This document shows, one piece after another, positions 5,442 to 32,668 of a stretch of DNA of 32,668 nucleotides. How positions within the stretch are numbered: the stretch's first letter is position 1; the number at the start of each line of letters is the position of its first letter. The notes beneath the pieces are model-generated. The model made no database searches. It was not told the origin of the DNA and saw only the letters and a list, made by a program, of their open reading frames with translations. The translations under genes were made by a program, and so were the position numbers. The stretch comes from Synechococcales cyanobacterium VAR_4_metabat_354 (GTDB lineage Bacteria; Cyanobacteriota; Cyanobacteriia; Cyanobacteriales; Chamaesiphonaceae), in assembly GCA_031414775.1 (NCBI GenBank), contig JANOQI010000027.1, positions 1 through 32,668 of the forward strand, given 5' to 3'.

Positions 5442-6224
5442 ATGAAATGGAACCCGGCGGACTATGCTCAAAGTTCTGATGCTCAATTGAAATGGGCGCA
5501 AGAACTCCAGGCCAACTTGCACCTGTCAGCTCACGAATCGATTTTAGATGTGGGTTGTGGTGATGGCAAAATTAGTGCCAACTTTGCGCAGTTGGTACCT
5601 GATGGTCGAGTAGTAGCGATCGATAGTTCCCCAGAGATGATTGAGTATGCGATCGATACCTATCCATCATCTCAATACCCCAATTTGTCTTTTACCTGTG
5701 TCAGTGCGCAGCATCTTACTTTTGAGCAAGAGTTTGACCTGATATTTTCTAACGCGGTTCTACACTGGGTAGATGACCATCCAGCTTTCTTGGCTGGTGC
5801 CCGACGAGCGCTACGGAGCGGCGGTCGATTAATTATTTCTTGTGGGGGAGCAGGGAATGCGATCGATGTTCTGCAAGTTTTCTCGGAACTGGTGGTGAGC
5901 CAACCGTGGCAGCAGTATTTTAATGGCTTTGTCAATCCCTTCTTTTTTTATGAGAGTACTGATTATCAAAAGTGGTTGCTATCTGAGGGCTTTACGGTGA
6001 ATCGTTTAGAGCTAATACCCAAAGACATGACCCATCGGAGTCGGGAAGAATTTACGGCCTGGATTCGTACTGCCTGGCTGCCTTTTACCAGCAAAGTCCC
6101 GGCGGGTGAACAATTGCAATTTATCGATGAATTTGTTGATCGCTATTTGGCGCTAGTGCCGATCGATCCGCAAGGCCGCACACATGTGCGGATGGTGCGG
6201 CTGGAAGTTGATGCTACCCATTAA
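5442..6224 (+). CDS. Class I SAM-dependent methyltransferase (trans-aconitate methyltransferase-like)
   Basis: MKWNPADY start, ILDVGCGDG, IDSSPEMI, FDLIFSNAVLHWV and VRLEV. ATG 5442 is preferred over the GTG at 5397. Confidence 0.8.
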   Translation: MKWNPADYAQSSDAQLKWAQELQANLHLSAHESILDVGCGDGKISANFAQLVPDGRVVAIDSSPEMIEYAIDTYPSSQYPNLSFTCVSAQHLTFEQEFDLIFSNAVLHWVDDHPAFLAGARRALRSGGRLIISCGGAGNAIDVLQVFSELVVSQPWQQYFNGFVNPFFFYESTDYQKWLLSEGFTVNRLELIPKDMTHRSREEFTAWIRTAWLPFTSKVPAGEQLQFIDEFVDRYLALVPIDPQGRTHVRMVRLEVDATH

Positions 6225-6840
6225 TCCCTCCGAGGTAAGACAGTAAGAGGTCAGATACCTCTTGGGCAAATTGGCCATCTTGCACAAAATCAGGATGCTC
6301 AATAACGGCGGAGTGACATAATGACTCTACCGTACAACTCAGAATGAAAACCGTCATTTCTAAATTTTGGGGTTGAATAAGATCGCTCCAGTGAGTTAGA
6401 TATGCTCGTAATAATTTGGTGATGCGCTCATTAGCCTGTTGTATTTGTGGCGATCGCTCGGAGCGGGGAATTTCTTCACTGAGTACTTGATGGAGTTTTG
6501 GATCGATCGCATGGGCAGCAATAACTACTTTTACTAAGGCCGGGATCGCTATTGCTGGCGGCGAGTCAAACAAATGATTCAGGTTAGTTTCCGCTAGCTC
6601 AGCCATTTGTTGCGCGTGCTGTTCTATTAATGCCGTCATTAATGCCTCTTTATTAGGAAAGTATTGATACAAGGAACCCACGCTAATCCCAGCTCGTTCG
6701 GCAATGTGATTGGTATTGGCTTTGTCGTAACCTTCCTCGATCAAAATATGAGTAGTTGCTTCTAAAATAGCTTCAACTGTCAGGCGCGATCGATCTTGTT
6801 GGGGTAGTTTGCGGGGCTTGGCGGAACGGGGACGGGGCAT
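6214..6840 (-). CDS. TetR/AcrR family transcriptional regulator
   Basis: PQQDRSRLTVEAILEA...TNHIAERAGISVGSLYQYFPNKEAL helix-turn-helix; ATG at 6840. Confidence 0.9.
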   Translation of the reverse strand: MPRPRSAKPRKLPQQDRSRLTVEAILEATTHILIEEGYDKANTNHIAERAGISVGSLYQYFPNKEALMTALIEQHAQQMAELAETNLNHLFDSPPAIAIPALVKVVIAAHAIDPKLHQVLSEEIPRSERSPQIQQANERITKLLRAYLTHWSDLIQPQNLEMTVFILSCTVESLCHSAVIEHPDFVQDGQFAQEVSDLLLSYLGGING

Positions 6841-6869
6841 AAAATATCTCAAATAAAAGCGAGTTGGCA

Positions 6870-6910
6870 ATCTAAGTAATTACTCGTATGATATGAGTAA
6901 TTACTTAGAT
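6870..6910. promoter_or_regulatory. Putative TetR double operator overlapping divergent promoters
   Basis: Perfect 16-bp IR ATCTAAGTAATTACTC (6870-6885) / GAGTAATTACTTAGAT (6895-6910). Each arm contains the palindrome AGTAATTACT, and the spacer contains the -10-like TATGAT. Confidence 0.75.
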
Positions 6911-6931
6911 ATTATCCTAAACTTGCTTGAT

Positions 6932-7510
6932 ATGGACGATTTGAAGCACCTCAACGAACCCTCAGCGATTCCTGCAATCTTTTCTGACACTCATGCTGCT
7001 GGTTTTAACATGCCCTCTGAGCCACTAGCCGGTGCGTTATTGCGCGTCTTGGCAGCATCGAAACCCAGTGGTCATTTTTTAGAACTTGGTTCGGGTACTG
7101 GCTTGTCTACCGCCTGGATTCTGGATGGCATGAATTCTACTGCTCATTTAACAACGATCGATCTCGAAGAAAATTTGCTAGCAATCCTAAACAAACATTT
7201 AGGCGATGATCAACGATTAACAGTGATTTGTGGTGATGGTGATGAATTTTTACAATCACCTCCGAGACAACAATTCGACTTTATTTTTGCTGATACCTGG
7301 GCAGGAAAGTATCGATTATTGGATGAGGCGTTGGCATTGCTGAAGCCTGGTGGTATTTACGTGATCGATGATATGTTGCCCCAGCCGAACTGGCCAGAGG
7401 GACATGACTTGAAAGCCGCTGGTCTGATTGCGACTCTAGAGCAACGTAGTGATCTGCGTATTGTAAAAATGTCTTGGGCGAGTGGGATGATCATCGTCAT
7501 CAAGCTTTGA
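6932..7510 (+). CDS. O-methyltransferase-like SAM-dependent methyltransferase
   Basis: G.LLRVLAASKP, FLELGSGTGLST, FDFIFADTW and LLKPGGIYVIDD. ATG 6932 is preferred because ATG 6893 lies inside the operator. Confidence 0.8.
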   Translation: MDDLKHLNEPSAIPAIFSDTHAAGFNMPSEPLAGALLRVLAASKPSGHFLELGSGTGLSTAWILDGMNSTAHLTTIDLEENLLAILNKHLGDDQRLTVICGDGDEFLQSPPRQQFDFIFADTWAGKYRLLDEALALLKPGGIYVIDDMLPQPNWPEGHDLKAAGLIATLEQRSDLRIVKMSWASGMIIVIKL

Positions 7511-7550
7511 TTCATGTTTTTAACGATTATTTTTCTGGAGGTCACACCTG

Positions 7551-7916
7551 ATGAAATCATCTCAATACCGCGTTTTTGTTTGTACGAAGCAACGTTCGTC
7601 TCGTGATATGGAAGGCTGTTGTCATAACATGGGAGCGCTGGACATCTATCAAACCTTTGTCGCTGAAATTGCCCAACGGCAATTAGGGGATCAAGTTCAA
7701 GTTTATCGATCGGGCTGTCTAGATCATTGTGCAGCTGGGGCAGTAGCTATGGTTTATCAACCGCAGCGAGGTGATTTTTCTTGGCTACCAGCTAAGTTAC
7801 GGCTAAAACTCCAAAAACTGTTATTTCCCAATCGTCATTTATATGGCCATCTAACTTGTAACGATATTCCATTGATTATAGATAGTCATTTTATTAATGG
7901 GCAGCCGCTGCAATGA
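7551..7916 (+). CDS. Thioredoxin-like [2Fe-2S] ferredoxin
   Basis: VFVCT.....CC, SGCLDHC..G, LYGHL and IIDSHF..G pattern; GGAGG RBS upstream. Confidence 0.8.
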   Translation: MKSSQYRVFVCTKQRSSRDMEGCCHNMGALDIYQTFVAEIAQRQLGDQVQVYRSGCLDHCAAGAVAMVYQPQRGDFSWLPAKLRLKLQKLLFPNRHLYGHLTCNDIPLIIDSHFINGQPLQ

Positions 7917-7956
7917 TGTCAGATATTTACCACCACTAAATAATTAAAGAGGATTT

Positions 7957-8310
7957 ATGACTAAAACACAAGAGTTAAATCAGGTCTATTTCATGCTACT
8001 AAAAACTACTACAACTTGGTTGCAAATTCCAACCAAAGGGCGTTTTGAGTTTCTGGCTGAGACGATCGCGCCAATCCTAAAAAAATACCCCGCTGTGAAA
8101 ATGCGGTTTTTTGATTCTGAAGCCTTTTCCGGACACTTCACCGATGTGCTGATGTGGGAAACAGCGATTGTGAAAGATTATCAGTTTTTAGTGGAGGAGC
8201 TACGTGAAACGTTGTTTTGGGGAACATATTTTGAAATTGTAGAGATTGTGCCTGCGATCGAGAATGCTTATGCCCTTTATAATGGTGTCAGTCCGCTTTC
8301 TGGATCTTAG
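7957..8310 (+). CDS. Darcynin-like protein (function unknown)
   Basis: FMLLKT...WL...R, MRFFDSEAF, DVLMWET, Y...VEELR..LF...YFE and IENAY resemble the darcynin family; AGGA RBS. Confidence 0.65.
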   Translation: MTKTQELNQVYFMLLKTTTTWLQIPTKGRFEFLAETIAPILKKYPAVKMRFFDSEAFSGHFTDVLMWETAIVKDYQFLVEELRETLFWGTYFEIVEIVPAIENAYALYNGVSPLSGS

Positions 8311-8588: not shown

Positions 8589-9842
8589 TTATGCTCGACG
8601 ACATCCTTTTGCGTTCGCGGAGCGTCGGCGTTGCTGAATAGTATCCCGCGACACCTTGAAATATGTCGATGCCCGACTCATATCAAAATATAGTAAATAG
8701 TCTTGATCGAGACTGATTTTCTCTTGGGGTGTTGACGGCTGAACACCCTGCGCTTTTAAAATTTCACTGGCTACTGCTCGTGCCAATAGAGGCGGTACAC
8801 TATTACCAATTTGGCGGCAGCCATGCCACTTAGTAGCATTTAACCGGAACCAATCGGGATATGAATGTAATCTAGCCGCCTCCCGCACTGTAATTACCCG
8901 TGACCAGTAGGGATGAATTGGGCGAGGTGAAGTGTAGGCACCTCTAGCACTATCTGTACCAGCCCGCAATGTATTGCACAATCCCTCTGGCTCTAGCTTA
9001 CGCAAGCGGCTAATCGGTTCAGTTTTGCCCTGAAGCGTAGCGGCAAATCGTTCTTGCGACAATTGAGCATGTCTAGTGCGCCAACTGCCGGTCAGTAGGT
9101 GCGGATCGAAATTACGCTGATAGCTGTAATCTTGGGGATCAGCATCGAAACCTCTTAACTTGCGGGCATAAGGGCTAAGTGTTTCCCAAGTTGTTGATAC
9201 TACATCAGTGGTAATAAGGACATCGAATATATCGCTATTGGGGAGATCTCCGATCGCATCCCAAACGGTTACTCTATTTTGCTCAGGTTCCGGATATTTT
9301 GGTACTGGTAAACTCTGGCGCGCACCGATTAAAAATAACCGCCGCCGATCTTGGGGCACTCCATAATCAGCGGCGTTCAATACTTGATACGGCGACATTA
9401 CACTATAGCCATTAGCGCCTAATGCTGTGATCAGTTCTGTTAAAAACTGACTATGCTTGCCCAGGGTTAGACCTCGGACATTTTCAAAGACAAAGTACTT
9501 GGGATTTAATTCCTTAACTAGGCGCACATAGTGAAATACTAACTGATTGCGAGGATCGTCTAGTACCCGCTTGCCCATTAAAGAAAAGCCCTGACAGGGA
9601 GCACCACCGAAGACTACGTCAATATCTTTTTTTGCTAGTTTTACCCGGTGCCGAATTTCAGCACCGGTAAGATTAACTACATTGGCACAAATTGTAGTGG
9701 TGTGGGGGAAATTATACTCGTGAGTTGCACAATGAATTGGGTCAATTTCCACTGCTGCTACCACATCGAAACCAGCCTGCTCAAAGCCCAGAGACATCCC
9801 CCCTGCACCAGCAAAAAGGTCGATTCCGATCGGTCTACTCAT
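8589..9842 (-). CDS. Orphan C5-cytosine DNA methyltransferase, probably CGATCG-specific (M.Ssp6803I/DmtC-like)
   Basis: IDLFAGAGG (motif I), APCQGFS (IV), FENV (VI), PQDRRR (VIII) and QIGNSVPP (X). The LCNTLRAGTDS.RGAYT.PRPIH segment resembles the cyanobacterial HIP1-core methyltransferase as recalled. No adjacent endonuclease. Confidence 0.85.
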   Translation of the reverse strand: MSRPIGIDLFAGAGGMSLGFEQAGFDVVAAVEIDPIHCATHEYNFPHTTTICANVVNLTGAEIRHRVKLAKKDIDVVFGGAPCQGFSLMGKRVLDDPRNQLVFHYVRLVKELNPKYFVFENVRGLTLGKHSQFLTELITALGANGYSVMSPYQVLNAADYGVPQDRRRLFLIGARQSLPVPKYPEPEQNRVTVWDAIGDLPNSDIFDVLITTDVVSTTWETLSPYARKLRGFDADPQDYSYQRNFDPHLLTGSWRTRHAQLSQERFAATLQGKTEPISRLRKLEPEGLCNTLRAGTDSARGAYTSPRPIHPYWSRVITVREAARLHSYPDWFRLNATKWHGCRQIGNSVPPLLARAVASEILKAQGVQPSTPQEKISLDQDYLLYFDMSRASTYFKVSRDTIQQRRRSANAKGCRRA

Positions 9843-9845
9843 GTC

Positions 9846-11174
9846 TTAGTTAGCTACTAATGTCAAAATTTGACCCAACATATTCATGGTTTCCTCATAC
9901 AACCAATCGTGACCTGAGCGACTGAAATAAGTACTTACTAGTTGCTCTGCATTTTGGTCGGAGAGGGAATTAACTTGCTCGACTTGGCAAATCTGTGCTC
10001 CGCCTTTTAGCTCCATCTGCATACAACCGGCTGTTTCTGAGCAAAGAATTGTGCAACAGTTGGCATCGGGATTCGTGGAAAATAGCTTGATCCCCATTAG
10101 ATCGCCCACTACCTCGCCGACTTCGGCTAAGGGCACACTGGCTAGCTCTGCTTTCACTTCCCGACCAGTACTAGATTGGAAGCTGATTTTGCGCAGATTG
10201 TAGTCACCACCGGGGTGGCTATAGCCAGTGGGTATCCAACCTAAACGTCCAGCCAGCCAGGCCAAATACAGCCAAGCTTGCGCCGAACTGCCCCGCTCAA
10301 AATTAATTTCCACTTCATCAATTTCCATGATCGATCGACGACGCTCGGGCGGATCAAAGGTGGCGGCGGTGAGTTCTTGCCAGGGTGCAATCCGCTGCCA
10401 GTTGATATCTACTAGTGGCAAGTTTTGCGCCAGTAATCCGGGCACCTGTTGCAGATCGGCAGCGGAGTTGGAAAAGGTTGCTGAATCCAAGATCACATTG
10501 GTGACACTATTGGCCAGACTCAGGAATAATTCGCGATCGTGTCCGGGGGTACCTTTCCACCACAAGAATTGGGGTAGCCCAGGTATCAATAGCTCTTGGA
10601 TCGACTCACTATATTTTTCTAACGCTGCTGACGAGCCAGCCAGCGTAATATATTCGCAACAGACCATCCGGCTTTGGTGTTGCTTTTTGATCGGACAATA
10701 GGCTGACACCTGAGCTTGCAAGATATGGTCGGCTTCTACTGTCTCGCACAGAGCAATAATTCGACAGGGGTTAGCTTGGGCGATTGCATCTGCTGCCCGA
10801 TAGTTTTGCTCGGCGTGGGTGGGGGTGATTCCTTGCTTGCTGGCTGCTAAATAAACTTCTTTTAGCTTCGTAAAAGTGGTTTCATCGGCACGACCGGTGA
10901 TCGGCAAATCATAGGCTTTTTGGGCATTCAACAGAGCATCTCTAGTTAGCGGCCCCATGATCCCATCGATCGGACCATCATAAAACCCGATGACGGTCAG
11001 TAGATGTTGAATTGGCTCCGGCTCGTAAACTACTAAAGTGAAAGTCGATGCTCGTACCGCCGTGCTCGCAGAATTCTGCCAAATGTCATTTAACTCGGTG
11101 GTAATAGCATCGATCGCAATCTCCTTGGGAGACAGTAACCGTACCACCGGCAAAGCTTGAATTGTTGTAGTCAT
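9846..11174 (-). CDS. opcA: Glucose-6-phosphate dehydrogenase allosteric activator OpcA
   Basis: RASTFTLVVYEP, PG-binding-like insert, NPCRII, AYCPI, CCEYITL, FLWWKG and CCTILCSE; directly downstream of zwf. Confidence 0.92.
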   Translation of the reverse strand: MTTTIQALPVVRLLSPKEIAIDAITTELNDIWQNSASTAVRASTFTLVVYEPEPIQHLLTVIGFYDGPIDGIMGPLTRDALLNAQKAYDLPITGRADETTFTKLKEVYLAASKQGITPTHAEQNYRAADAIAQANPCRIIALCETVEADHILQAQVSAYCPIKKQHQSRMVCCEYITLAGSSAALEKYSESIQELLIPGLPQFLWWKGTPGHDRELFLSLANSVTNVILDSATFSNSAADLQQVPGLLAQNLPLVDINWQRIAPWQELTAATFDPPERRRSIMEIDEVEINFERGSSAQAWLYLAWLAGRLGWIPTGYSHPGGDYNLRKISFQSSTGREVKAELASVPLAEVGEVVGDLMGIKLFSTNPDANCCTILCSETAGCMQMELKGGAQICQVEQVNSLSDQNAEQLVSTYFSRSGHDWLYEETMNMLGQILTLVAN

Positions 11175-11192
11175 AGTTTCAGGATTATGGGT

Positions 11193-12722
11193 TTAGATCC
11201 GGCGCCACCGACGGCCATCTTGGTTGAGTAATAGTTCTGCTTCGATTGGTTCCCAAGTTCCTGCCGGGTAAGTTGGCATGTTGTTGGGATTACGATCGGA
11301 CTCCCAGGCTGATAAAGCCGGAGTAACAATCCGCCAGGCTTCTTCCACTTCATCGGCACGAGTGAAGAGGGTTTGGTCTCCTAACATACAGTCTAACAAC
11401 AGTCGATCGTATGCGTCGGAGCTTTTGATCCCAAAGCTAGAACCGTAGCCAAAATCCATATCGACGGTGCGGGTGCGGAGATCGGGTCCAGGCATCTTGG
11501 CTTCAAAGCGCATCGAGATTCCTTCATCAGGGTAAATCTGGAGCACTAATACATTAGGATTAGCTTGTTTGGCCGCCGATTGAAAGATCCCCCAGGGCAC
11601 TTTTTTAAACTGAATAGCAATCTCTGAAACCTTTTTGGGCATTCGTTTACCGGTACGTAGGTAGAAAGGCACTCCTTGCCAGCGCCAGTTGTCGATCGAG
11701 AACTTCATCGATACATAAGTAGGCGTGGTGGAATCTGCGGCCACGCCGGTTTCTTCGCGATAACCCGGTACTCCTTTACCCTTCATTGAACCAGCCGTGT
11801 ACTGACCGCGCACCGCACAGCGTTCTAGATTTTGCAGATCAGCTAAGTGGGTAGCTTGCAACACTTTGAGCTTCTCGGTACGGATGCTATCGGCATCCAA
11901 GGAGTTGGGCGCTTCCATGGCCGTCAGACAAAAAGTCTGCATTAGGTGATTTTGGAGCATGTCCCGCAGGGCACCAGCCGATTCATAATAGCCTGCCCGG
12001 TCTTCCACCCCCACTGTTTCGGCCACGGTGATCTGCACATGGTCGATGTAATGACGATTCCAGAGCGGTTCAAAAATGGCATTAGCAAACCGAAACACCA
12101 ACAGGTTTTGGACAGTTTCCTTGCCTAAATAGTGGTCGATGCGGTAGACCTGTTTTTCTTTGCAGACCTTCTGCACCACTTGATTCAGGTTCTGTGCTGA
12201 GTTCAAATCGCGACCAAAGGGCTTCTCAATCACCAGCCGCTGCTTATCGGGATCGTTGAGCATTCCGGCGGCACCGAGTTGTTCGATCGCCTCGGGAAAG
12301 AAGCTCGGTGATACCGAGAGGTAAAAGACCCGATTTCCTTTTGTTTGACGTTTTTCATCCAATTCGCCCAGGAAAGCTTTCAGCCTTTGGTAACTTTCTG
12401 GTTTGTCGATGTCGCCAGGGCAGTAATAAAGTCCTTGAGCAAAATCTTCCCAAGCGGCTTCGTTATTGATGCCGTCGCCAAACTCTTCCACTCCTTTTTT
12501 CAGGTGCTCGCGGAAATATTCGTGGCTCCAATCTCGTCTGGCTACTCCGACGATCGTAATTTCGGGGGGCATCCGCCGATCGAGCTTCATCTGGTAGATG
12601 GCTGGTACTAATTTACGCTGGGTCAAGTCCCCAGAAGCGCCAAAGATTACAATAATCTGCGGCTCGGGCAGTTTTTCTTGGCGGAGTCCGACCCGGAGGG
12701 GATTGGTCAATAATGATGTCAT
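11193..12722 (-). CDS. zwf: Glucose-6-phosphate 1-dehydrogenase
   Basis: [22 protein letters not shown] and [13 protein letters not shown]. Confidence 0.97.
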
Positions 12723-12735
12723 AGAAGGTATTTAA

Positions 12736-13884
12736 TTATTTAGCAATGGCGAGCGCGTCAATCTTGGCTTGCAAGCTAGCCATCAGTGTCACAAAAGGTT
12801 GGACGAATTTGTCGATGCCATCCACCAACAGCTCTGCCATTACTTCGTCTAAGTCGATGCCCACATCGGCATCAGCCAAACTAGCAATCAGGCTCCGGGC
12901 TTCATCTACTCCCGCTTCAATTCGACTGGCCGGATCGCAATGGTCGGCGCAGGCTTCGATCGTTTGGGGTGGCAGGGTATTGACCGTATCGTCGCCAATC
13001 AAACCATCGACATACATGACGTCGCTGTAGCTGGGATCTTTGGTGCCGGTACTGGCCCACAGTAGCCTTTGCACTCTTGCGCCTTTAGCTGCTAATTTTT
13101 GCCAACGCTCGCTTTCAATAATTTTTTTGTATTCTTGGTAGGCGACTTTGGCGTTAGCGATCGCAATCTGACCTTTCAATCCATGCAATTTGGTTTGCAA
13201 CGTTTCGTCGGTGGTGGATTTAATCAGGTTGTCCAAGCGTTTGTCGATATTAGAATCAATCCGGCTCAAGAAAAAACTAGCCACCGAGGAAATATTATTA
13301 ACCGCCAAGCCCTTGGCCATTCTGGACTCTAAACCGCGAATGTACGCCCAGGCTGTGGCTACATAATTTTCTACTGAAAATAGTAAGGTGACGTTGACGT
13401 TGATCCCCTCGGCGATCACCTTTTCGACAGCGGGCAGACCCTCCGGGGTGCCGGGGATCTTAATCATCACATTGGGACGATTAATGGACTGGTAGTAGCG
13501 CAGGGCTTCACTAATGGTTTTTTCGGTATCAGCAGCAATGGTCGGAGGGACTTCGATGCTGACATAGCCATCAATGCCATTAGATTTGTTGTAAATCGGC
13601 ATTAGGACATCAGCGGCCATCTGAATATCAGTGAATACTAAAGATTCATAGATTTCTGCCAGGGATTTCCCTGCCCGGATTCCGGCTTCAATATCTTGAT
13701 CGTAGACCGCATTACCAACAATCGCCTTTTCGAAAATTGCTGGGTTGGAAGTAATTCCTAATACCCCGCGCGACTCGATTAACGTGGCCAACTCTCCCGA
13801 CGTGAGTAAGTCACGACTGAGGTTGTCCATCCAAATGCTTTGGCCAAACTGCTGTTCGATTTCTAATATGTGGTTGGTCGCCAT
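12736..13884 (-). CDS. tal: Transaldolase (type 2)
   Basis: SIWMDNLSR, GITSNPAIF, MIKIPGT, VNVTLLFS, ASFFLSRID and RLLWASTGTK. The start could be ATG 13884 or up to two codons upstream. Confidence 0.95.
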   Translation of the reverse strand: MATNHILEIEQQFGQSIWMDNLSRDLLTSGELATLIESRGVLGITSNPAIFEKAIVGNAVYDQDIEAGIRAGKSLAEIYESLVFTDIQMAADVLMPIYNKSNGIDGYVSIEVPPTIAADTEKTISEALRYYQSINRPNVMIKIPGTPEGLPAVEKVIAEGINVNVTLLFSVENYVATAWAYIRGLESRMAKGLAVNNISSVASFFLSRIDSNIDKRLDNLIKSTTDETLQTKLHGLKGQIAIANAKVAYQEYKKIIESERWQKLAAKGARVQRLLWASTGTKDPSYSDVMYVDGLIGDDTVNTLPPQTIEACADHCDPASRIEAGVDEARSLIASLADADVGIDLDEVMAELLVDGIDKFVQPFVTLMASLQAKIDALAIAK

Positions 13885-13942
13885 CACCAAAACTCCTAAT
13901 CAATGCAAAACTTACGGACAGACTGGCAATATTTTCTCTACC

Positions 13943-14977
13943 CTAGCTGATCCCCACCCGGACTGCTGGATCTTTGCTGGCTAGAGCATTAATAAATGAT
14001 TCGACGAGGGCGACATCCTCGGAACTGCCGATGATTAGGGGCGTGCGGGTATGGATTTGGTCGGGTACGACATCCAGAATATCTTGATTGCCCGTGCTGG
14101 CTCGACCTCCGGCTTGCTCGATCAAAAAAGCCAGTGGTGCACACTCATAAAGTAACCTTAGTTTGCCTTGGGGCTTTTTGGTGGTGCCAGGATAGATAAA
14201 TACGCCGCCCTGTAATAATATCCGGTGCATGTCGCCCACTAGGGCACCACTGTAACGGGCGGTGTAACCGGGATGACGGTGGACATACTTAATATAGTCG
14301 CGGTAGGCTTCTGGCCATTGCCAGTAGTTGCCTTCGTTGACGCTATAAACGCTGCCATTACTGGGGATTTGGATATTTTCGGTAGCCAGAATGAACTCGC
14401 CCAGGCTGGGGTCAAGAATAAAGCTGTGGACACCAGTGCCGATCGAATAGACCAAGGTAGTACTGTGACCGTACAAAATGTAGCCAGCGGCGATCTGGTT
14501 GCGCCCGTCTTGCAGCCAATCTTCCGGGGCATCACCATCTTGGCGGCGAATGGCAAAGATTGATCCCACGTTTAGATTCACATCTAAATTTGAGGAACCA
14601 TCGATCGGATCGTAAAGCAGAGTGTAGCGGCTCAGAGCACAATTTTCATCAATTGTGTAAGGCTCGGCCATTTCTTCGGAGGCCAACCGACAGATTAAGC
14701 CGCTTTGGCGAAAGACGGTGATGAACACCTCGTTAGCATAGGCATCCATCTGTTTGACTTCTTCGCCCTGGATATTGGTTTCGCCGGTAAAGCCCAGGGC
14801 ATTGGCCATTAATCCAGCCTGACTGAGCCGCCTTGCAATGAGCTTGCCAGCTAAAGCAATGCGGTTCATGATCGCGCTCAAATCTTGAGCGTTATTGTCA
14901 AAGCTCTGGAGCTGCTGGAGAATGTGGCGAGACAGGGTTGTGCAGTCGCGATCAAGGGATGGTTCGTTGTTCAGCAT
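13943..14977 (-). CDS. fbp: Fructose-1,6-bisphosphatase class 1
   Basis: [28 protein letters not shown] and GKLRLLYE; first gene of fbp-tal-zwf-opcA. Confidence 0.95.
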
Positions 14978-25655: not shown

Positions 25656-25877
25656 ATGAATCAAGAGCCTTCAGAAATAGCATCGGTTGATATGTGGCAA
25701 TCTAAACCCTGGTGGTGCCAGCCTTGGACAATTATCCTCACCGGGATTTTGTTGATAGCCGGGAGCTGGTTTTTGTTACATACCCTGTGGTTGACTGTGC
25801 CTTTGGGAATTTTGATTGTGGTGTGGTGGACTTATTTTTTGCTTTTGGTACCCCGGCTTTTACGGGGAGGGCAATAG
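25656..25877 (+). CDS. Small cyanobacterial membrane protein (DUF6737-like)
   Basis: W..KPWWCQPW.I.LTG followed by two hydrophobic helices. Confidence 0.7.
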   Translation: MNQEPSEIASVDMWQSKPWWCQPWTIILTGILLIAGSWFLLHTLWLTVPLGILIVVWWTYFLLLVPRLLRGGQ

Positions 25878-26963
25878 TAGGCTTTTAATTTGTTTAGCTC
25901 GGTTGCCTAGACATACTTTTAGCAAGTGAGTATTACTTGGTGCTGACAAAGGATATTCAATTAATATTAAGACCTTAAACAGAAAGAAAGAGAGACCAGT
26001 CGTAACCGGCTGGAAGAAATTACTGGACAATAGTTTTCCGTATTGTCGTACTACCCAGTCATTTTCAATTAGTTGCCAGATCGATGCTGGTAAAGGTGTA
26101 CCTAGCAGATCATGAGTGACGAGCAGGGCGATCAGCAATAGCCGCTGACAGCCGCTCGTAGTTGCTCGATCGATCACGGTTTCCCATCGTGGCGCTGAGT
26201 AATGACCCACTAATTCAGCAATATCAGAGACTTTTGCTAATATGCATTTTTTAGCATAAGAATCTTTCACAATTTGGATAGATAACACTAGTAAAAGGTC
26301 TTCCATACTGAAACTTTGAACAGTGTTATCTAATAAAACAACACTTTGGCAACGCTGAATACAACCTTTAAAATCAAGACGAAATGGATAGTAAGATTGA
26401 GCGATACCTATATGGAGGTCAATATTAACTCCCTGATCAAGATGAATAAATGTTTGTTCCCATTCATATTGATCATATAATTGATAACCCTTAGAAATCA
26501 GTAATGCCTCGGATTTAGTCACATCTTGAGGGTCAATCAATAAATCTAAATCCTGAAATTGACGGAAGCAAATATCTCCGTACACAGCAGATGCTAGTAC
26601 TGCTCCCTTATAAGGAATTACTTGAATATTTTCAGCAGCAAACCAAGCTAAAATCTCTAACAATTTACTGCTTAAAGACATGGAAATAACGATGTTCGTG
26701 TAATTTATTTCCCTCAACTGCCAGGAAATACTATCGGGAATTAGTTCACCACCGACCTGCTGTAAGTTCCGATAAAGTAAAGGAATAACCTGCTGATAAA
26801 TGGCTAATTCAATTAATTTATCCCAGTCGATCTTTTGCTGAATTAATAACCTAATTTGCTGATTAACAGTCTCATCAATATGCGTGCGAGCACAGCACAA
26901 TAATAGCTGCTCTTCGATCGAACTATTCAACATCACGCTAGATTGTAGATATGAAGATGTCAT
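25860..26963 (-). CDS. Uncharacterised nucleotidyltransferase (NTP_transf_5-like, lasso-cluster associated)
   Basis: IDW..L..LA, IPYKG..LA..YGD...R.F.DLDLLI and IDLH; starts 3 bp after the ABC transporter stop. Confidence 0.8.
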   Translation of the reverse strand: MTSSYLQSSVMLNSSIEEQLLLCCARTHIDETVNQQIRLLIQQKIDWDKLIELAIYQQVIPLLYRNLQQVGGELIPDSISWQLREINYTNIVISMSLSSKLLEILAWFAAENIQVIPYKGAVLASAVYGDICFRQFQDLDLLIDPQDVTKSEALLISKGYQLYDQYEWEQTFIHLDQGVNIDLHIGIAQSYYPFRLDFKGCIQRCQSVVLLDNTVQSFSMEDLLLVLSIQIVKDSYAKKCILAKVSDIAELVGHYSAPRWETVIDRATTSGCQRLLLIALLVTHDLLGTPLPASIWQLIENDWVVRQYGKLLSSNFFQPVTTGLSFFLFKVLILIEYPLSAPSNTHLLKVCLGNRAKQIKSLLLPSP

Positions 26964-26966
26964 CGG

Positions 26967-28781
26967 TTATCGATAAGGCTCGGCTTGGGTTTCAAATAGA
27001 TCGGCATAAACACCATGCTGCTTCATTAGTGTTTCGTGGGTGCCCTGCTCAATAATAAAGCCTTTATCCATTACATAAATTCGGTCAGCCATTTTGACGG
27101 TGGAGAGACGATGACTAATTAAAATAGCCGTCTGATTGGTGATCAGTTGCCGAAATTTTTGAAATACATCATATTCGGCCTTTGGATCCATCGCACTGGT
27201 CGGTTCATCCAAAACGATTACTTGGGAGTTACGCAAAAAAGCCCGGGCTAAAGCAATTTTTTGCCATTGACCAATACTCAGCTCCTCACCATCATCAAAT
27301 AAGGCACCGAGAATGGTTTCATAGCCTTGGGGTAGACTAGCAATCACCCGTTCAGCTCCCGAACGCTGGGCAGCGGTGCTGACACTGGCGATAGTCTGGG
27401 GCAACTCTGTATTGCCCAACCAAATATTTTCGAGGGCGGTGAGATTGTACTTGGCATAGTCTTGAAAAATCACGCTCATTTGACGGCGTAGATCTGCTGT
27501 TTTAAAGTTTTTTAAGTTAGTGTTATCGATCGATACCGTGCCACTAGTCGGATCGTACAACCGGCAGAGTAATTTCACCAAAGTTGTTTTACCACAACCA
27601 TTCTCGCCAACTAAAGCAATAATTTCGCCAGGGGCAATGCGTAAGTTGATGTTGTGCAAAGACTGGCGGGTGCTATTGGCGTATTTAAAAGAAACCTCCT
27701 CAAACACAATGCCGCTTTGCATGGGACAGGGTAAAACCTGGGGGTGTTCTGGTTCGGCGATCGTCGATTTAAGGTTGAGAAAATCATAGAGGTTGGTAAG
27801 AAAAAGATTATCTTCATACAGTCCCGACAGACTGCCTAAAATACCTTTGAGAGATGACTGACCCCGTTCAAAAGCCTGGTAGTACAGGAAAAGATCACCA
27901 ATTTTTAGAACGCCTTGTAAGGTTTGGTTCACAATAAAAGCATAAGCAGCCAGAATCATCACACTACTAATGAGCTGTGCTCCCAGTCCAGCGATCGATC
28001 TCTTGGCAGCAATAGAGACCTCTCCCCGCCATAGCTCCCGGCGCAACCGCTGAAAGCGCTCCCGAAACAGCTGACCAAGATTAAATAGCCGTACTTCTTT
28101 AGCAAACAGGACGCTGGTCAGCAGCCAATTAATGTAATCTGTTTGGCGCTCAATTACGGTCTTTTCACGGTTCCAATTAAAGAGCAGGTTGGCATACTTC
28201 ATTCTCACTAAGACAGACGGCAGAGCCGCTACTAAGAGAATGCTAGCAATGCCCCAATGTAGAGATAGCAACAGTACTACCATAGCGCTGAGCGAAATAC
28301 TTTGTTGAGCAACTTCGATCAGCTTTTGCAGAACTTGATTAGGCCGATAGGTGGCTTCTTCTTGTGCTCTTTTAAGGGTGTCTAAGTATTGAGGCGTTTC
28401 ATAGTAGCCTAAATCCATCTCGATCGATTTAGCCTGGAGCAGGTCACTCATGGCATCATTCACCCGATGAGACTGGCCAGTATTTACCAGGTCTGCCAAA
28501 AAAGTACAGAAGTCGGAGATGAGCGTGACCACACCTATCAGTACTAGTAACACTATTAGTTTCTGGGCAGCTGCTTGCGGCTGGGTGGTTAATCCCAAGG
28601 TCAGGGCATCAATAATTAGCTTGGTCAGATACAACGAGCAAAGCGGCAAAATCCCTTGAACGATTAGTAAACCCACCCGAGCGAGTGTCCAGCGGGGAGC
28701 ACTGTTCCAAACCATGCGGATTGCTGGCCCCAAATGTAAAGCCTGGGTAAGTTTAGAAATCAACTGCTGCGGTGAGGCCAT
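26967..28781 (-). CDS. ABC exporter (fused permease/ATPase, no C39 peptidase domain)
   Basis: N-terminal TM helices, Walker A GENGCGKTT, signature LSIGQWQK, Walker B VIVLDEP and ISHR. Confidence 0.9.
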   Translation of the reverse strand: MASPQQLISKLTQALHLGPAIRMVWNSAPRWTLARVGLLIVQGILPLCSLYLTKLIIDALTLGLTTQPQAAAQKLIVLLVLIGVVTLISDFCTFLADLVNTGQSHRVNDAMSDLLQAKSIEMDLGYYETPQYLDTLKRAQEEATYRPNQVLQKLIEVAQQSISLSAMVVLLLSLHWGIASILLVAALPSVLVRMKYANLLFNWNREKTVIERQTDYINWLLTSVLFAKEVRLFNLGQLFRERFQRLRRELWRGEVSIAAKRSIAGLGAQLISSVMILAAYAFIVNQTLQGVLKIGDLFLYYQAFERGQSSLKGILGSLSGLYEDNLFLTNLYDFLNLKSTIAEPEHPQVLPCPMQSGIVFEEVSFKYANSTRQSLHNINLRIAPGEIIALVGENGCGKTTLVKLLCRLYDPTSGTVSIDNTNLKNFKTADLRRQMSVIFQDYAKYNLTALENIWLGNTELPQTIASVSTAAQRSGAERVIASLPQGYETILGALFDDGEELSIGQWQKIALARAFLRNSQVIVLDEPTSAMDPKAEYDVFQKFRQLITNQTAILISHRLSTVKMADRIYVMDKGFIIEQGTHETLMKQHGVYADLFETQAEPYR

Positions 28782-28799: not shown

Positions 28800-29921
28800 T
28801 TAAGCAAAGCGGCCAATTAGTTTCTGGACAAAATTGATGGCTTTTTGCTGGTTAGGAAAAAGCTGTGGATATTTTTGGCAGAGGTTATCGCTTAAAACTT
28901 GGACAGAAACCGTGCCGTCGCTACCAGATAAAACCTCCAAAGCCGCCTCACCTTGCAGATTTTTTTGGGGCTGATAATCTAGGGAGGTCTTTTTGAGAGA
29001 GGCCAAAGACATCGGCATCGAGAAAAAAGTAGAGTGAGACTGTTTTGCTTGGGTCGTTTCTACTGTCCAGCTCCAGTCAGCAAAAGGCGGACGCTGCAAG
29101 GTAAAAGTAACTCGATCGCCTGCGGTCACGGTGATCGGCGGATCAAGGGGCAGAAAAGCCGAACCCCAGTGCAGTTGTGGTTCGTGGGGCGCTGTCGATA
29201 GCCAATCATTTCCTAACTGCATCTTGAACCAGCCTGCCCAGCCATGACAAAGGCCAGATTCAGTGATGGTGTAATCAACGCTCACCTGACAGTTGGTATC
29301 GGTAGCCTGATGAAAATCGAGGGCAAATAAATCGATCGGATCAGCTAGATAACGAGATTTTTCTAGTTCTTTCCGATAGTAAAGGATTGATTGGCTCACA
29401 TAAGGTCTGGCGACGCTGTGATCAAGACCCAAATGGGGCTGAGACCAGACCTCTAGATCGGCTTCGTAAACTTCTGGTGCACAGACGGGGGCGGCTTGCA
29501 TGACCCCGGCTTGTGGTAACAAAATGCCACCAGGCTTGAGATATCGATCGCGTGCATAAAATAGCGATGGCAGCAGGTCTTCTTCTAATAAAAAGTTACC
29601 GGTGAAAACTGAGGTAATGATATCTACCTTTTCGGGTAGCTCTACTTCTTCGATCGAACCCTGGAGACAAACCACTCGATCGGCCAAACCATTGCTGTGA
29701 GCAATTTCTTTGGCTACCATAATAATATCTTCGGGTTCTACCAAATAAACCCGCTTTGCTCCTAGCTTAGCGGCCAATAAACCATGAATTCCCAGGCCAG
29801 CCCCCACATCCAAAACTACACTTTCTGGTGTGATCACCTGGACTAAGGCTTGGGCATAAACTTCATTGCGGCGGACATCTAACGCCATGGAATGTTGACC
29901 CTGGACTAAGGCGTAGCTCAT
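28800..29921 (-). CDS. PRMT-fold SAM-dependent methyltransferase with a possible C-terminal RRE-like helical domain
   Basis: H..M..D..R...Y..A, VVLDVGAGLG, AAK.GAKRVY.VE, ARDRYLKPGG.L.P, CHG..GWF and LSTAP....LHW parallel the PRMT1-type layout. Confidence 0.8.
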   Translation of the reverse strand: MSYALVQGQHSMALDVRRNEVYAQALVQVITPESVVLDVGAGLGIHGLLAAKLGAKRVYLVEPEDIIMVAKEIAHSNGLADRVVCLQGSIEEVELPEKVDIITSVFTGNFLLEEDLLPSLFYARDRYLKPGGILLPQAGVMQAAPVCAPEVYEADLEVWSQPHLGLDHSVARPYVSQSILYYRKELEKSRYLADPIDLFALDFHQATDTNCQVSVDYTITESGLCHGWAGWFKMQLGNDWLSTAPHEPQLHWGSAFLPLDPPITVTAGDRVTFTLQRPPFADWSWTVETTQAKQSHSTFFSMPMSLASLKKTSLDYQPQKNLQGEAALEVLSGSDGTVSVQVLSDNLCQKYPQLFPNQQKAINFVQKLIGRFA

Positions 29922-30793
29922 TGCTTTTGGCTCTCTTTTAATAACAAAGCATATACTTCTGGCAGGCGGCTAAAATCGTGGGGATAGATCAGTCGCTGCA
30001 CTGGACAACGATTTACCAACTGGACATAAGCATCCAATAACCGAGGATTGCGATCGATAAAACGACTGACATCGTAACCATGAGTTAATAATTCAAAAAT
30101 TCCTTGTGCGGGTGGAATAGCTTCCAGCCGAATAGACTCGGTGTCCAGTTCGGGGTTAGCGAGCAAATACAAGCCGCCCAATGGTAAAGGTTCTTGTTGA
30201 TAAGTACCACCCAAATGGGTTTCTGGATGATAGAAAATTTTGTAATCGGTGGCTTGGGAAGCATCTAAACCTAGCAATTCACCTGTTTCTGGATATAATT
30301 TGATGCGGGGATTCCCCGGTAAAACATGCCCTTGCTCATCGATCACTAAAACATCATCGGTCACTAATCCAGCTCCATGACTAGTGCAAAAGGCACTTAA
30401 GGTTGATTTACCAGCACCGGAATATCCAATAAAAGCCACAGCTCGACCATTAAGAACTACTGCATTGGCATGAACTGCGATCTGTCCTTGTAAATTCAGA
30501 CAAATCCCGGTCAAAGTACTAGTGAAGCCCAATGTCAACTCTCCCGGATCTAAATCACGGGCATCTTCAGTGACACAGACTTGGATATTCAGACCATCCA
30601 GGCTAACCCAGGCTCCTATTTGATCTGACCAATCCACCCAATGGGGATTTTGGCCAAAGACATCATGCGCCAGATTCTGTCTGACTGGAGAGTTATCCGA
30701 CTTATGCAGTAGCGTTGTTACATACTCAATGGTCAGTCGCTGAAGGCGAGATGCTTGCCTCAACTCACTGTGCAGGATGTCTGAGATGTTCAT
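29918..30793 (-). CDS. HPr-kinase-like P-loop kinase (lasso peptide kinase type)
   Basis: VHANAV, Walker A GYSGAGKST, LVTDD and P.IKL; ATGA overlap with the methyltransferase. Confidence 0.82.
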   Translation of the reverse strand: MNISDILHSELRQASRLQRLTIEYVTTLLHKSDNSPVRQNLAHDVFGQNPHWVDWSDQIGAWVSLDGLNIQVCVTEDARDLDPGELTLGFTSTLTGICLNLQGQIAVHANAVVLNGRAVAFIGYSGAGKSTLSAFCTSHGAGLVTDDVLVIDEQGHVLPGNPRIKLYPETGELLGLDASQATDYKIFYHPETHLGGTYQQEPLPLGGLYLLANPELDTESIRLEAIPPAQGIFELLTHGYDVSRFIDRNPRLLDAYVQLVNRCPVQRLIYPHDFSRLPEVYALLLKESQKQ

Positions 30794-30823
30794 TTTTGAT
30801 TAGATGAAGACAAAAGCCCGGCT

Positions 30824-30856
30824 CAAAATAAAAAACTCGGTCTAAAATCCGAGTTT
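30824..30856 (-). terminator. Stem-loop / partial terminator after the precursor gene
   Basis: AAACTCGG (30833-30840) / CCGAGTTT (30849-30856) IR followed by a T-rich tract on the minus strand. Confidence 0.55.
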
Positions 30857-30902
30857 GCAGTCAAATTGATTATGAAAATGACTTTAGGTAGAATTGTGAT
30901 AC

Positions 30903-31022
30903 CTAACCCATCATCATGGTTCCGCCCATCATGTCTGCATACATGAAACCGCTCATCTGGTTGGTTACGGAGTACAAAGAGCCAAGTTTAGTTAATTGGG
31001 GACTGACGTATTTTTTTAGCAT
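30903..31022 (-). CDS. Lasso-type RiPP precursor peptide, 39 aa: MLKKYVSPQLTKLGSLYSVTN-QMSGFMYADMMGGTMMMG
   Basis: Hand-translated from ATG (31022) to TAG (30903). Leader has YxxPxLxxxG and Thr at -2; Asp is at core position 9. First gene of the operon; TGGTAAAAT extended -10-like element at 31061-31053. Confidence 0.85.
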   Translation of the reverse strand: MLKKYVSPQLTKLGSLYSVTNQMSGFMYADMMGGTMMMG

Positions 31023-31089
31023 GGAGTTATTTACTCTATTGAACTGGATTTCATTTTACCATAACACGCGGATTATTGTTTAGCTTACA

Positions 31090-31141
31090 GGCTTTCATCC
31101 CGACGCTCTACCCGATCGGGTAAAGCGTCGGGATGAAAGCC
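31090..31141. repeat. 52-bp near-perfect palindrome (IS left-end hairpin)
   Basis: GGCTTTCATCCCGACGCT / AGCGTCGGGATGAAAGCC (18 bp perfect) enclosing TACCCG-AT-CGGGTA. Confidence 0.9.
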
Positions 31142-31217
31142 GAGCGAGTTGACGATTACAATTGAGCCGCATAACACGGAGTGTTTGCTATTATTGTTTT
31201 AGAGTAATCAAGGAATC

Positions 31218-32429
31218 ATGCTAAAAGCTGTCAAAGTCCGAATTTACCCCACTAAAGCCCAGCAGATTCATCTTGCTCAGGCTTTTGGTTGTGTGCGTTG
31301 GGTCTGGAATCAGTCTTTGAGCGTAATGACCGCGACATATCAAGAGACGGGGAAAGGCGTTACAGCCATGACCATGAAGAAATCTATACCCTTGTGGAAA
31401 ACAGAATTTGAATGGCTTTCTGAGTGCTACTCACAATGCCTTCAGCAATCAGTTCTTAATTTGGGCATAGCTTTTGGCAATTTTTTCGATGGTCGGGCAA
31501 TGTATCCAACTTTTAAAAAGCGCCAAGGAAAACAATCAATTCAGTTTCCGCAAAACGTCAAAGTTTTAAGTGATTCTGAAATTAAGTTTCCAGGCAATTT
31601 TGGTACTGTCAAGGCAAAGGTACATCGGGATATTAACGGCAAGGTTAAGACCGTAACCGTGAGTAAAAATCCTGATGGTAGATACTTTGCTTCGATGCTT
31701 GTGGACGACGGAATTGATAACCCTGAAGCCAGCAAAGACGGTGATGTAATTGGTATCGATCTAGGTCTAACCGATTTTGCAGTAACCTCCAATGGCTCCA
31801 AATATCAGCACCCGAGAGCTACTAAGAAGTATGAGAGAAACCTAAAGCGTAAGCAAAAAAAGCTATCTCGTAAAAAAGAAAAGACGACTAGCAATCGTCG
31901 AAAAGCTAAGCTTGCAGTGGCTAAGGTTCATTCCAAAATCAAAAGAGTCCGCGAAGATTTCCTACACAAGCTATCGCGCAAGATAGTAGACGAAAACCAA
32001 GTCATAGTGGTAGAGAATCTGGCAGTAAGAAACATGGTGAAAAATCATTGTCTAGCCAAGGCAATTTCTGATGCTGGCTGGGGAATGTTTTGCACCATGC
32101 TCAAATACAAAGCTGAAATGGTGGGTAAGGTCTATCTAGAAATAGGTCGATTTTTTGCATCTACTCATCTTTGCTCGAACACTTTGAAGTCACTGCCAAA
32201 GATGGATCTATCGGTGCGTGAATTCGATTGCCCTCATTGCGGACAAAGGCACGATAGAGATATTAACGCTGCGATAAACATCAAAAATGAAGGCTTGCGC
32301 GTATTGACGTTGGGAACCAGCGTTATTGCTCCTGAAGGCTACGTAAGACCAAAACAGTATGGGCGCAAGTCTACTACTGTAGAGGCTGTGGTCGTTGAAG
32401 GGAGAAGCCCACGCTCTACCGCAAGGTGA
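31218..32429 (+). CDS. tnpB: RNA-guided endonuclease TnpB
   Basis: K.RIYPT..Q...L...FGC.R.VWN N-terminal HTH; RuvC-I GIDLG, RuvC-II VVENL, RuvC-III DRDINAAINI; CPHCG. Confidence 0.93.
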   Translation: MLKAVKVRIYPTKAQQIHLAQAFGCVRWVWNQSLSVMTATYQETGKGVTAMTMKKSIPLWKTEFEWLSECYSQCLQQSVLNLGIAFGNFFDGRAMYPTFKKRQGKQSIQFPQNVKVLSDSEIKFPGNFGTVKAKVHRDINGKVKTVTVSKNPDGRYFASMLVDDGIDNPEASKDGDVIGIDLGLTDFAVTSNGSKYQHPRATKKYERNLKRKQKKLSRKKEKTTSNRRKAKLAVAKVHSKIKRVREDFLHKLSRKIVDENQVIVVENLAVRNMVKNHCLAKAISDAGWGMFCTMLKYKAEMVGKVYLEIGRFFASTHLCSNTLKSLPKMDLSVREFDCPHCGQRHDRDINAAINIKNEGLRVLTLGTSVIAPEGYVRPKQYGRKSTTVEAVVVEGRSPRSTAR

Positions 32430-32465
32430 GCGTCGGGTAGTTCACTCTAGAGATCATTGCTAGAC
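32300..32465 (+). ncRNA. Predicted omega/reRNA (scaffold overlapping the tnpB 3' end plus flanking guide)
   Basis: Inferred from established TnpB biology. Hairpin ACGCTCTACC-GCAA-GGTGAGCGT precedes the TTCAC end; the guide would be TCTAGAGATCATTGCTAGAC. The 5' boundary is a guess. Confidence 0.5.
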
Positions 32466-32667
32466 GCTGTTCGGTGATTTTGAGTGCTGGACTCATTGCG
32501 CTTGCTTTGGTAAGTGTGAAGCCCAAAAGTCTTCCAGGTAAATGATTGTGGACTTCATCAAACCCATAGTTATCTTTGATATGGTTTGCTAATATATAGG
32601 ATAGCAGTGGCGGTATGGCGTTGCCGATTTGTTGGATTTTTTCTGAGGTGTTGCCCAGAAACCGGAA
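32416..32667 (-). CDS. C-terminal end of a second C5-cytosine DNA methyltransferase (partial, runs off the window)
   Basis: Hand translation FRFLGNTSEKIQQIGNAIPPLLSYILANHIK...AMISRVNYPTLTLR* contains motif X (QIGNA.PP); the stop lies inside the IS right end. Confidence 0.75.
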   Translation of the reverse strand, partial: FRFLGNTSEKIQQIGNAIPPLLSYILANHIKDNYGFDEVHNHLPGRLLGFTLTKASAMSPALKITEQRLAMISRVNYPTLTLR

Positions 32668-32668
32668 G

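Follow-up and report, generated by a model that had tools for sequence, protein, structure and literature searches.

Tailored Lasso Peptides and the Locus under Study

Known lasso peptide kinases modify a C-terminal serine, according to the available text of three reports (PMC8498205, PMC6993621, PMC12639078), and in the pair PsmK/PsmN this activity becomes a phosphoglycosylation (PMC6993621, same part); BsfK, of the bsf cluster of Bradymonas sediminis FA350, phosphorylates Ser3 of the ring and rejected tyrosine (PMC10368454, as far as its available text describes the enzyme). For methylation, the nearest precedent is longipeptin A, a lasso peptide with an S-methylated methionine at a plug-equivalent position (PMC10028836, available sections). 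LopH, the enzyme to which this step was assigned without a knockout and whose role is given as unconfirmed in the accessible part of PMC11285071, is likened there and in PMC10028836 to the SAM-binding part of MTHFR; it belongs to a P450 cluster and would have a single methionine to act on.

The locus described here lies on the minus strand of the window, that is, the whole stretch of 32,668 nucleotides that was analysed, from Synechococcales cyanobacterium VAR_4_metabat_354. Its closest likeness is to three of the systems above. With the bsf cluster (BsfA, B1, B2, C, D, BsfK and BsfN; PMC10368454, available text), it has in common the split B1/B2 proteins, a kinase together with a protein N, the lack of a C-terminal serine, a YxxPxL motif running from −17 to −12 and Ser3. 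It differs from that cluster in carrying Thr(−2) instead of Ile(−2), in its additional methyltransferase of the protein arginine methyltransferase (PRMT) fold, in a conserved tyrosine two residues before the ring aspartate (D−2) and in cores that are rich in Met or Arg; Ser or Thr occurs at position 3 in just 10 of 58 relatives, so that the bsf-type combination of a family-wide Ser/Thr3 with Ile or Val at −2 is not found here. With the paeninodin and pseudomycoidin systems (PadeK, PsmK, PsmN; PMC6993621, PMC8498205, in the parts at hand), the locus shares an HPr-kinase-like enzyme with a DD motif, an NTP_transf_5-type protein N with a DxD motif, an ABC exporter and a nine-residue Asp ring; their kinases, however, use a C-terminal serine that is lacking here, and no PRMT-fold methyltransferase is described in those texts. 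Longipeptin A, finally, is a precedent for the chemistry proposed below, although the enzyme considered here has a PRMT fold, by which it is set apart from LopH as the latter's fold is described, and would face up to seven Met residues rather than one.

The Probable Precursor Gene

The small reading frame noted in the preliminary description is recovered with the same limits, strand, length and translation, and is divided as follows.

30903..31022, minus strand: putative lasso precursor gene A, 39 aa, ATG start; recognised from its sequence, relatives and selection
30960..31022, minus strand: predicted leader of precursor A, 21 aa, with Tyr(−17), Pro(−14), Leu(−12) and Thr(−2)
30906..30959, minus strand: predicted core of precursor A, 18 aa, with a predicted Gln1–Asp9 macrolactam, Tyr7 and 7 Met
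30833..30856, minus strand: terminator-like hairpin with a U run in the spacer between A and the kinase gene; a consensus match, present in the closest relative (genome G001) too

The core, QMSGFMYADMMGGTMMMG, begins with Gln1, holds Asp9 as its sole acidic residue, contains seven Met and no Arg, Lys, His or Cys, and ends with Gly. The leader places the Tyr, Pro and Leu of YxxPxL in the register that the available text of PMC10368454 describes for lasso leaders; this register and Thr(−2) constitute two anchors and thus fix the cleavage point before Gln. Among the 10,104 ATG-started open reading frames of 30–70 aa in the whole genome, two combine such a leader register with an acid at core positions 7–9, and a single one, precursor A itself, has at least seven Met in its last 18 residues; at the genome-wide Met frequency of 1.9%, seven Met in 18 residues correspond to a binomial P of 2e-8. 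Precursor A and its counterpart in G001 are separated by eight synonymous and two non-synonymous differences, the latter both located in codon 22 (Gln/Ala), and the resulting dN/dS of 0.044 compares with 0.05–0.14 for six partner genes. By this substitution pattern, the 39-codon frame is a conserved, real gene under purifying selection.

Lasso models are the best matches among family models in spite of low scores: the NCBIfam leader model NF033521 gives A 13.5 bits, under its cut-off of 19, and NF033528 gives the precursor of a relative 17.1 bits, under its cut-off of 33. The hairpin after A is weak when taken alone (one found, 0.4 expected in shuffles). An overlapping plus-strand frame of 55 aa (30916-31083) was considered as the true gene and discarded, as the differences from G001 are synonymous in the minus frame.

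Gene Order and Distribution of the Cluster

Downstream of A, four genes follow on the same strand.

29918..30793, minus strand: putative HPr-kinase-like lasso kinase; PF07475 at 22.1 bits, under the cut-off of 33.3; Walker A and DD motifs
28800..29921, minus strand: putative PRMT-fold SAM-dependent methyltransferase (MT), overlapping the kinase stop codon (ATGA); Val105 in place of the first catalytic Glu; RRE-like helical tail
26967..28781, minus strand: ABC exporter (D), by family match
25860..26963, minus strand: NTP_transf_5 nucleotidyltransferase-like protein (N), 188 bits against a cut-off of 31.2; DxD motif

The window is an entire contig (C27), and no cyclase and no peptidase are found among its open reading frames. 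One B2 and one B1 gene adjoin a cyclase gene C at the end of contig C20 of the same genome (G000). B2 passes NF033537 (103 bits, cut-off 33) and B1 passes PF05402; C passes PF00733, and its best NCBIfam match is the lasso cyclase model NF033535, at 241 bits against a cut-off of 525. The catalytic motifs are present, namely Cys/His in B2 and SGGxDS in C. In four of five close relatives, the order B2-B1-C-A-kinase-MT-ABC-N is contiguous, and the contig of the fifth begins just before C; variants of the order are one extra frame before C in G013 and four tandem precursors in G007. A cluster missing its B and C genes was therefore dropped from consideration. That A encodes a lasso precursor in which the ring would run from Gln1 to Asp9, as had been proposed from the sequence of the frame, agrees well with B2, B1 and C being present in the genome and adjoining A in the relatives, and with an Asp at positions 7–9 in 55 of 58 family cores.

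Taken together, the frame very probably (a probability of roughly 0.85) codes for the precursor of a tailored lasso peptide of class II, the product of a cyanobacterial B2-B1-C-A-kinase-MT-ABC-N cluster. What the sequences show directly is the gene itself and the selection on it, the register of the leader, the conservation of Asp and Tyr, the motifs of the partner proteins and synteny. By analogy with known lasso pathways, B1 would bind the YxxPxL leader, B2 would cut after Asn(−1), C would close the ring around the tail by joining the α-amine of Gln1 with Asp9, and export of the product would fall to the ABC transporter D.

The cluster is patchily distributed: it occurs in 5 of the 38 other family genomes, in 9 of 400 genomes from the order and in 5 of 400 from the class. 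The named records with the closest MTs are cyanobacterial and include a Synechococcales MAG (97%) and a Chamaesiphon MAG (82%); a search for the MT in plasmids gave no match, and a metagenome scan returned one weak partial locus. An uncharacterised cyanobacterial lasso cluster that contains a kinase is mentioned in the available text of PMC6993621. In the literature searched, neither this family nor a lasso cluster with a PRMT-fold enzyme is described, although supplementary precursor lists may hold these sequences; the available parts of PMC12214591, PMC12637814, PMC13381572, PMC13352647 and PMC9266682 hold nothing specific to this lasso family.

Several related loci show peculiarities of their own. 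The tandem precursors of G007 (L031 9396-10396) are four genes with 8- and 9-residue rings, and another contig, from run X5, has three tandem leaders. G872 has an additional in-cluster gene (L089 8706-9512) for a weak class I methyltransferase match, and in-cluster frames of no clear Pfam family occur in G714 (L069 9282-10052) and G013 (L033 11581-12354).

Conservation of the Core across the Family

A profile search yielded 58 precursor clusters among 221 candidates, and these form the family set; since 14 of the relatives had gone into building the profile, the conservation counts lean towards it. Asp stands at position 7–9 in 55 of the 58 cores and at position 9 in 46, and neither the G714 nor the G1002 core has an acid at 7–9. 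Tyr is found at D−2 in 47 of 55 cores and Gly four residues before the Asp in 45 of 55, a place taken by Phe in the present peptide. In the leader, Tyr(−17) is kept in 57 of 58 precursors and Thr(−2) in all 58, the Thr having been part of the pattern that placed the cut. Met makes up at least 20% of the core in 29 of 58 and less than 10% in 19 of 58; near-identical strains differ by Met10Arg (X5) and Met16Ile (X6, X7). The two traits whose conservation among homologues the preliminary description had made the touchstone of its reading have thus fared differently: the ring aspartate is kept, and the richness in methionine holds in only half of the cores.

When the three cores lacking an Asp at 7–9 are removed, Met and Arg contents in the remaining 55 are inversely related (Spearman −0.81, a stronger opposition than for any other of the 16 residues compared, and −0.80 in the 34 cores with long leaders), values that are overstated since the sequences are related and that describe a pattern rather than a test. 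ATG to AGG is a single mutation. Every one of the 55 cores has Met or Arg/Lys or both, and all eight Met-free cores contain at least four Arg/Lys. At columns dominated by Met, the residue gives way to Ala (40) or Asn (30) more frequently than to Arg (21). A derivation of the Arg codons from ATG was considered, given that 10 of 14 core Arg codons in MT-bearing clusters are AGA/AGG, versus 36 of 294 across eight genes for cyclases, and was abandoned as not specific, three of four being AGA in the cores of clusters lacking the MT.

A second type of cluster (L035, L036, L060, L071) has an MT with an SDLRG motif, listed for L035, L060 and L071; its cores contain Lys, and their first plausible Asp lies at position 10–11, beyond the usual ring size.

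The Kinase and the Nucleotidyltransferase-Like Protein

The Walker A and DD motifs of the kinase are unchanged across all 14 aligned relatives, and comparison with the PDB by sequence gave only weak P-loop matches. As for a possible acceptor, a C-terminal Ser occurs in three of the 58 cores and Ser/Thr3 in the ten mentioned above; seven of 58 contain no Ser or Thr at all, and all seven have a Tyr. As there is no C-terminal Ser, the kinase would phosphorylate a hydroxyl group of the ring, either Ser3, a guess based on precedent, or the family-wide Tyr7, a guess based on the family. N may then glycosylate the phosphate made by the kinase.

The Methyltransferase and Its Predicted Target

The predicted structure of the MT (pLDDT 96.7) has a PRMT fold and superimposes on PRMT8 with a Z-score of 34.6 and an rmsd of 1.8 over 297 aligned residues; the whole catalytic fold is common to eukaryotic type I PRMTs (PRMT8, 5dst; PRMT1, 1or8; CARM1), with Z-scores of 33–34.6. 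The differences from these enzymes lie in the double-E loop, the first Glu of which is Val105 here, in additional RRE-like helices at the C-terminus and in a cognate core without Arg; the second Glu, the SAM motif and the HW of the THW loop are kept. Among 112 near-full-length sequences from the best 150 homologues, the position of the first Glu is Val, Ala or Cys in 33 of the 33 closest and Asp or Glu in 77 of the 79 more distant. The tail consists of helices only, where an RRE/PqqD domain has three strands and three helices. When it is folded alone and compared with 48,161 chains, the top match is PqqD, followed in second place by lasso B1 and in fourth by TbiB1, with Z-scores (5.4–6.7) below the tool's caution level of 8: 6.7 for PqqD (rmsd 2.0 over 52 residues) and 6.6 for lasso B1 (rmsd 1.9 over 57). 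A profile comparison of the tail with B1 (hhalign) gives a probability of 2%.

The PRMT-fold enzyme would methylate an acceptor other than arginine. Since the known acceptor of lasso kinases is absent and the MT lacks the arginine-binding residue, at least one tailoring modification probably falls on an undescribed site. Several observations place S-methylation of methionine first among the candidates: the tail of the present core has no aromatic plug for a nine-residue ring, Met and Arg contents are opposed across the family, Met and the MT occur together, and longipeptin A offers a precedent. The co-occurrence amounts to Met in 19 of 19 precursors of 15 MT-bearing clusters and in neither of the two precursors of MT-less clusters, a comparison that leaves out G1019 and the eight Met-free, Arg-rich precursors without assigned loci; searches of the genera around G759 and G932 yielded no genomes beyond these two. 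The MT-less clusters belong to G178 and G1002, genomes 99% complete in which the MT has no match at E 1e-10, and their Met-free cores contain two Cys; as the two are sisters in the cyclase tree (97/93), they count as a single event, and N is also missing in the stretches examined.

The methionine sulfur is accordingly ranked as the first-choice and likeliest single acceptor, an assignment that stays tentative. Of the functions suggested in the preliminary description, a scaffold for methionine modification is the one that the sequence evidence favours. In its full form, the proposal is that a PRMT-fold methyltransferase, with a hydrophobic residue in place of the arginine-binding Glu, grips the precursor through its RRE-like tail and S-methylates several Met; the product would be a poly-sulfonium lasso in which methyl-Met replaces the Arg of the sister peptides as both charge and steric plug, with a phosphate or phosphoglycosyl group on the ring, possibly on the conserved Tyr. 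As a whole, this is possible, with the odds against it. Methylation of the Met sulfur would give a tail that has no aromatic residue cationic, branched plugs.

The main objection to Met as the target is that the same SVFTGN motif of the MT accompanies Met-rich cores and Met-poor, Arg-containing cores (among the 10 of 13 loci for which the motif is listed). This leads to the strongest alternative, in which the lasso pathway is the same and the MT acts on a site common to all cores, such as the C-terminal carboxyl, the phosphate made by the kinase, the Tyr hydroxyl or a nitrogen of the backbone or isopeptide, the richness in Met being a tolerated hydrophobic composition. It stands at about even odds. 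One MT motif would then serve both kinds of core, the known lasso methylations by LasF and StspM are C-terminal methyl esters (in the sources as available), the overlap of the MT and kinase genes suggests sequential action, and near-identical strains have Ile or Arg in place of a Met. What a common site leaves unexplained is the absence of any core devoid of both Met and Arg/Lys and the Met-free state of the MT-less pair, which is one event; as for Tyr in particular, it is absent from the MT-linked cores L040 and G586.

Taken alone, the precursor is one more lasso gene, and the value of the locus lies in its tailoring chemistry. If the Met sulfur is the site, the cluster would represent a second, unrelated route to sulfonium RiPPs and the first to place several sulfoniums; it would also extend the PRMT fold to a new reaction and supply a tool to add fixed charges or plugs to peptides. 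The Met-rich, Arg-rich and MT-less clusters constitute natural, ready controls.

The two MT-less sister clusters (L078 10145-10300 and L090 1697-1867) are of interest in themselves, as their two-Cys cores make them candidate disulfide-containing cyanobacterial lassos.

The Break between the Cyclase Gene and the Precursor Gene

Upstream of A, the window shows two further features.

31084..32446, plus strand: IS200/IS605 element with tnpB (31218-32429), in the C–A spacer just downstream of the predicted main −10 box
31053..31082, minus strand: residual promoter-like site before A (9/12, extended TG); a consensus match only, three found versus 1.1 expected

Over the compared stretch, the C–A spacer of G001 matches C20 up to and including base 245; from base 246 onward, it matches the window instead. 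The best promoter-like site (10/12, extended −10) lies directly before this break, on the C side. At the break, the C20 side runs into a multi-copy element that we take to be IS982-like from its PF13612 match and its size, and the window side runs into the IS200/IS605 element; a contig of run X1 passes from the right end of the tnpB element through a short target repeat to the other end of the IS982-like element. The last 222 bases of the window (32447-32668), with a depth of 0–1.2 in run X1, occur in none of 24 relatives; they hold the end of an open frame that to our eyes resembles the C-terminal part of a cytosine methyltransferase, and may be a misjoin at the tnpB element. The simplest reading, which rests on one 32-base loose end, is that C and A still lie in one contiguous cluster, that their spacer has taken up about 2.3 kb of IS DNA, and that the tail of the contig is misjoined.

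With the IS insertions lying between A and its predicted main promoter, output may be reduced in this strain. A stronger version, in which A is intact but little used here because the insertions cut it and the tailoring operon off from the main promoter, is judged rather unlikely. The position of the best promoter-like site on the C side of the break and the IS605-type and IS982-like elements found there speak for it. Against it, all eight genes are uninterrupted and the seven tested have a dN/dS of 0.04–0.14 relative to G001, although a recent insertion would show no decay yet; a second promoter-like site still stands in front of A, and in strains X5–X7 the Gln1 allele goes together with an intact spacer.

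The IS982-like element has a further copy in contig C16 of the genome (L093 116-991), and its ends terminate at least 10 contigs of the assembly.

Copper, Silver and Oxidants

A thioether-rich mature peptide could also be a chelator of Cu(I)/Ag(I) or a scavenger of oxidants, as had been suggested on first inspection; the comparison of relatives tells against this function, which is improbable. Motifs made of Met only can bind Cu(I) and Ag(I), Met accounts for seven of the 18 core residues and for at least 20% of half of the cores in the family, and an exporter gene is present. However, Met falls below 10% in 19 of 58 cores and is absent from eight of 55, it is exchanged among strains, and none of the 58 cores contains His or Cys. 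Neither the 34 open reading frames of the window nor 33 selected flanking proteins of 10 loci include a copper or silver transporter, chaperone, sensor or Msr family, and S-methylation, if it occurs, would destroy the thioether ligands. In one of the 10 related loci, a cytochrome oxidase subunit II is among the flanking proteins.

Glutamine at Core Position 1

A contig of run X1 is identical to window positions 30500-31697 (0 differences); X1 is a possible source of the assembly and is not independent of it. Contigs that span the site in X5 and X6, both from one study, and in X7, from another, keep the Gln codon and continue into an intact spacer, and position 1 is Ala in X8, in a second X6 contig and in the nearest relative, G001. 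Since Gln1 occurs in strains with an intact spacer, it is older than the IS insertions, and an assembly error or decay after insertion is excluded as its origin, IS-free strains of two other studies sharing it. Across the 58 precursor clusters, where the Ala form stands for the 90% cluster to which the window's precursor belongs, position 1 is Ala in 23, Arg in 14, Gly in 13, Met in three, Glu in two, and Ser, Asn and Gln in one each.

Cyclases tolerant at this position are described from PalC/palassoptides and FusC/fusilassin (PMC13632552; 10.1101/2020.11.25.399105, available text of both), with Phe1, Glu1, Trp1 and Tyr1; Trp1 and Tyr1 lassos are known from the latter report, and PalC cyclises every position-1 variant except Pro, according to the former. 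These systems are actinobacterial, and the same texts describe neither such tailoring genes nor a natural Gln1 lasso. Gln1 therefore adds little, near-complete tolerance at position 1 being already published. The meaning that had been attached to it as an oddity does not survive the Ala of the nearest relative, the eight residues found at this position in the family and the tolerance of PalC (PMC13632552, in its available part): Gln1 is a rare, tolerated and unremarkable allele. The precursor of G714 (L069 10260-10418) also has a core that begins with Gln, but there the Asp of the G-x-F-x-D motif falls at position 13.

An N-terminal Gln can cyclise spontaneously. A linear peptide blocked by pyroglutamate after leader removal, with no lasso formed, is nonetheless highly improbable, given that no PF05096 glutaminyl cyclase is found in G000 (99.96% complete; the control is positive in 3 of 14), that Asp9 is retained and eight residues are tolerated at position 1 across the family, and that PalC takes all but Pro there (PMC13632552, as available).

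Elsewhere in the Window

Two regions outside the cluster are worth recording. A C-5 DNA methyltransferase gene (8589-9842) adjoins an fbp-tal-zwf-opcA operon (9846-14977) and is unrelated to the lasso cluster. At 6214-8310, a TetR regulator gene is divergent from methyltransferase, DUF1636-like and darcynin genes.
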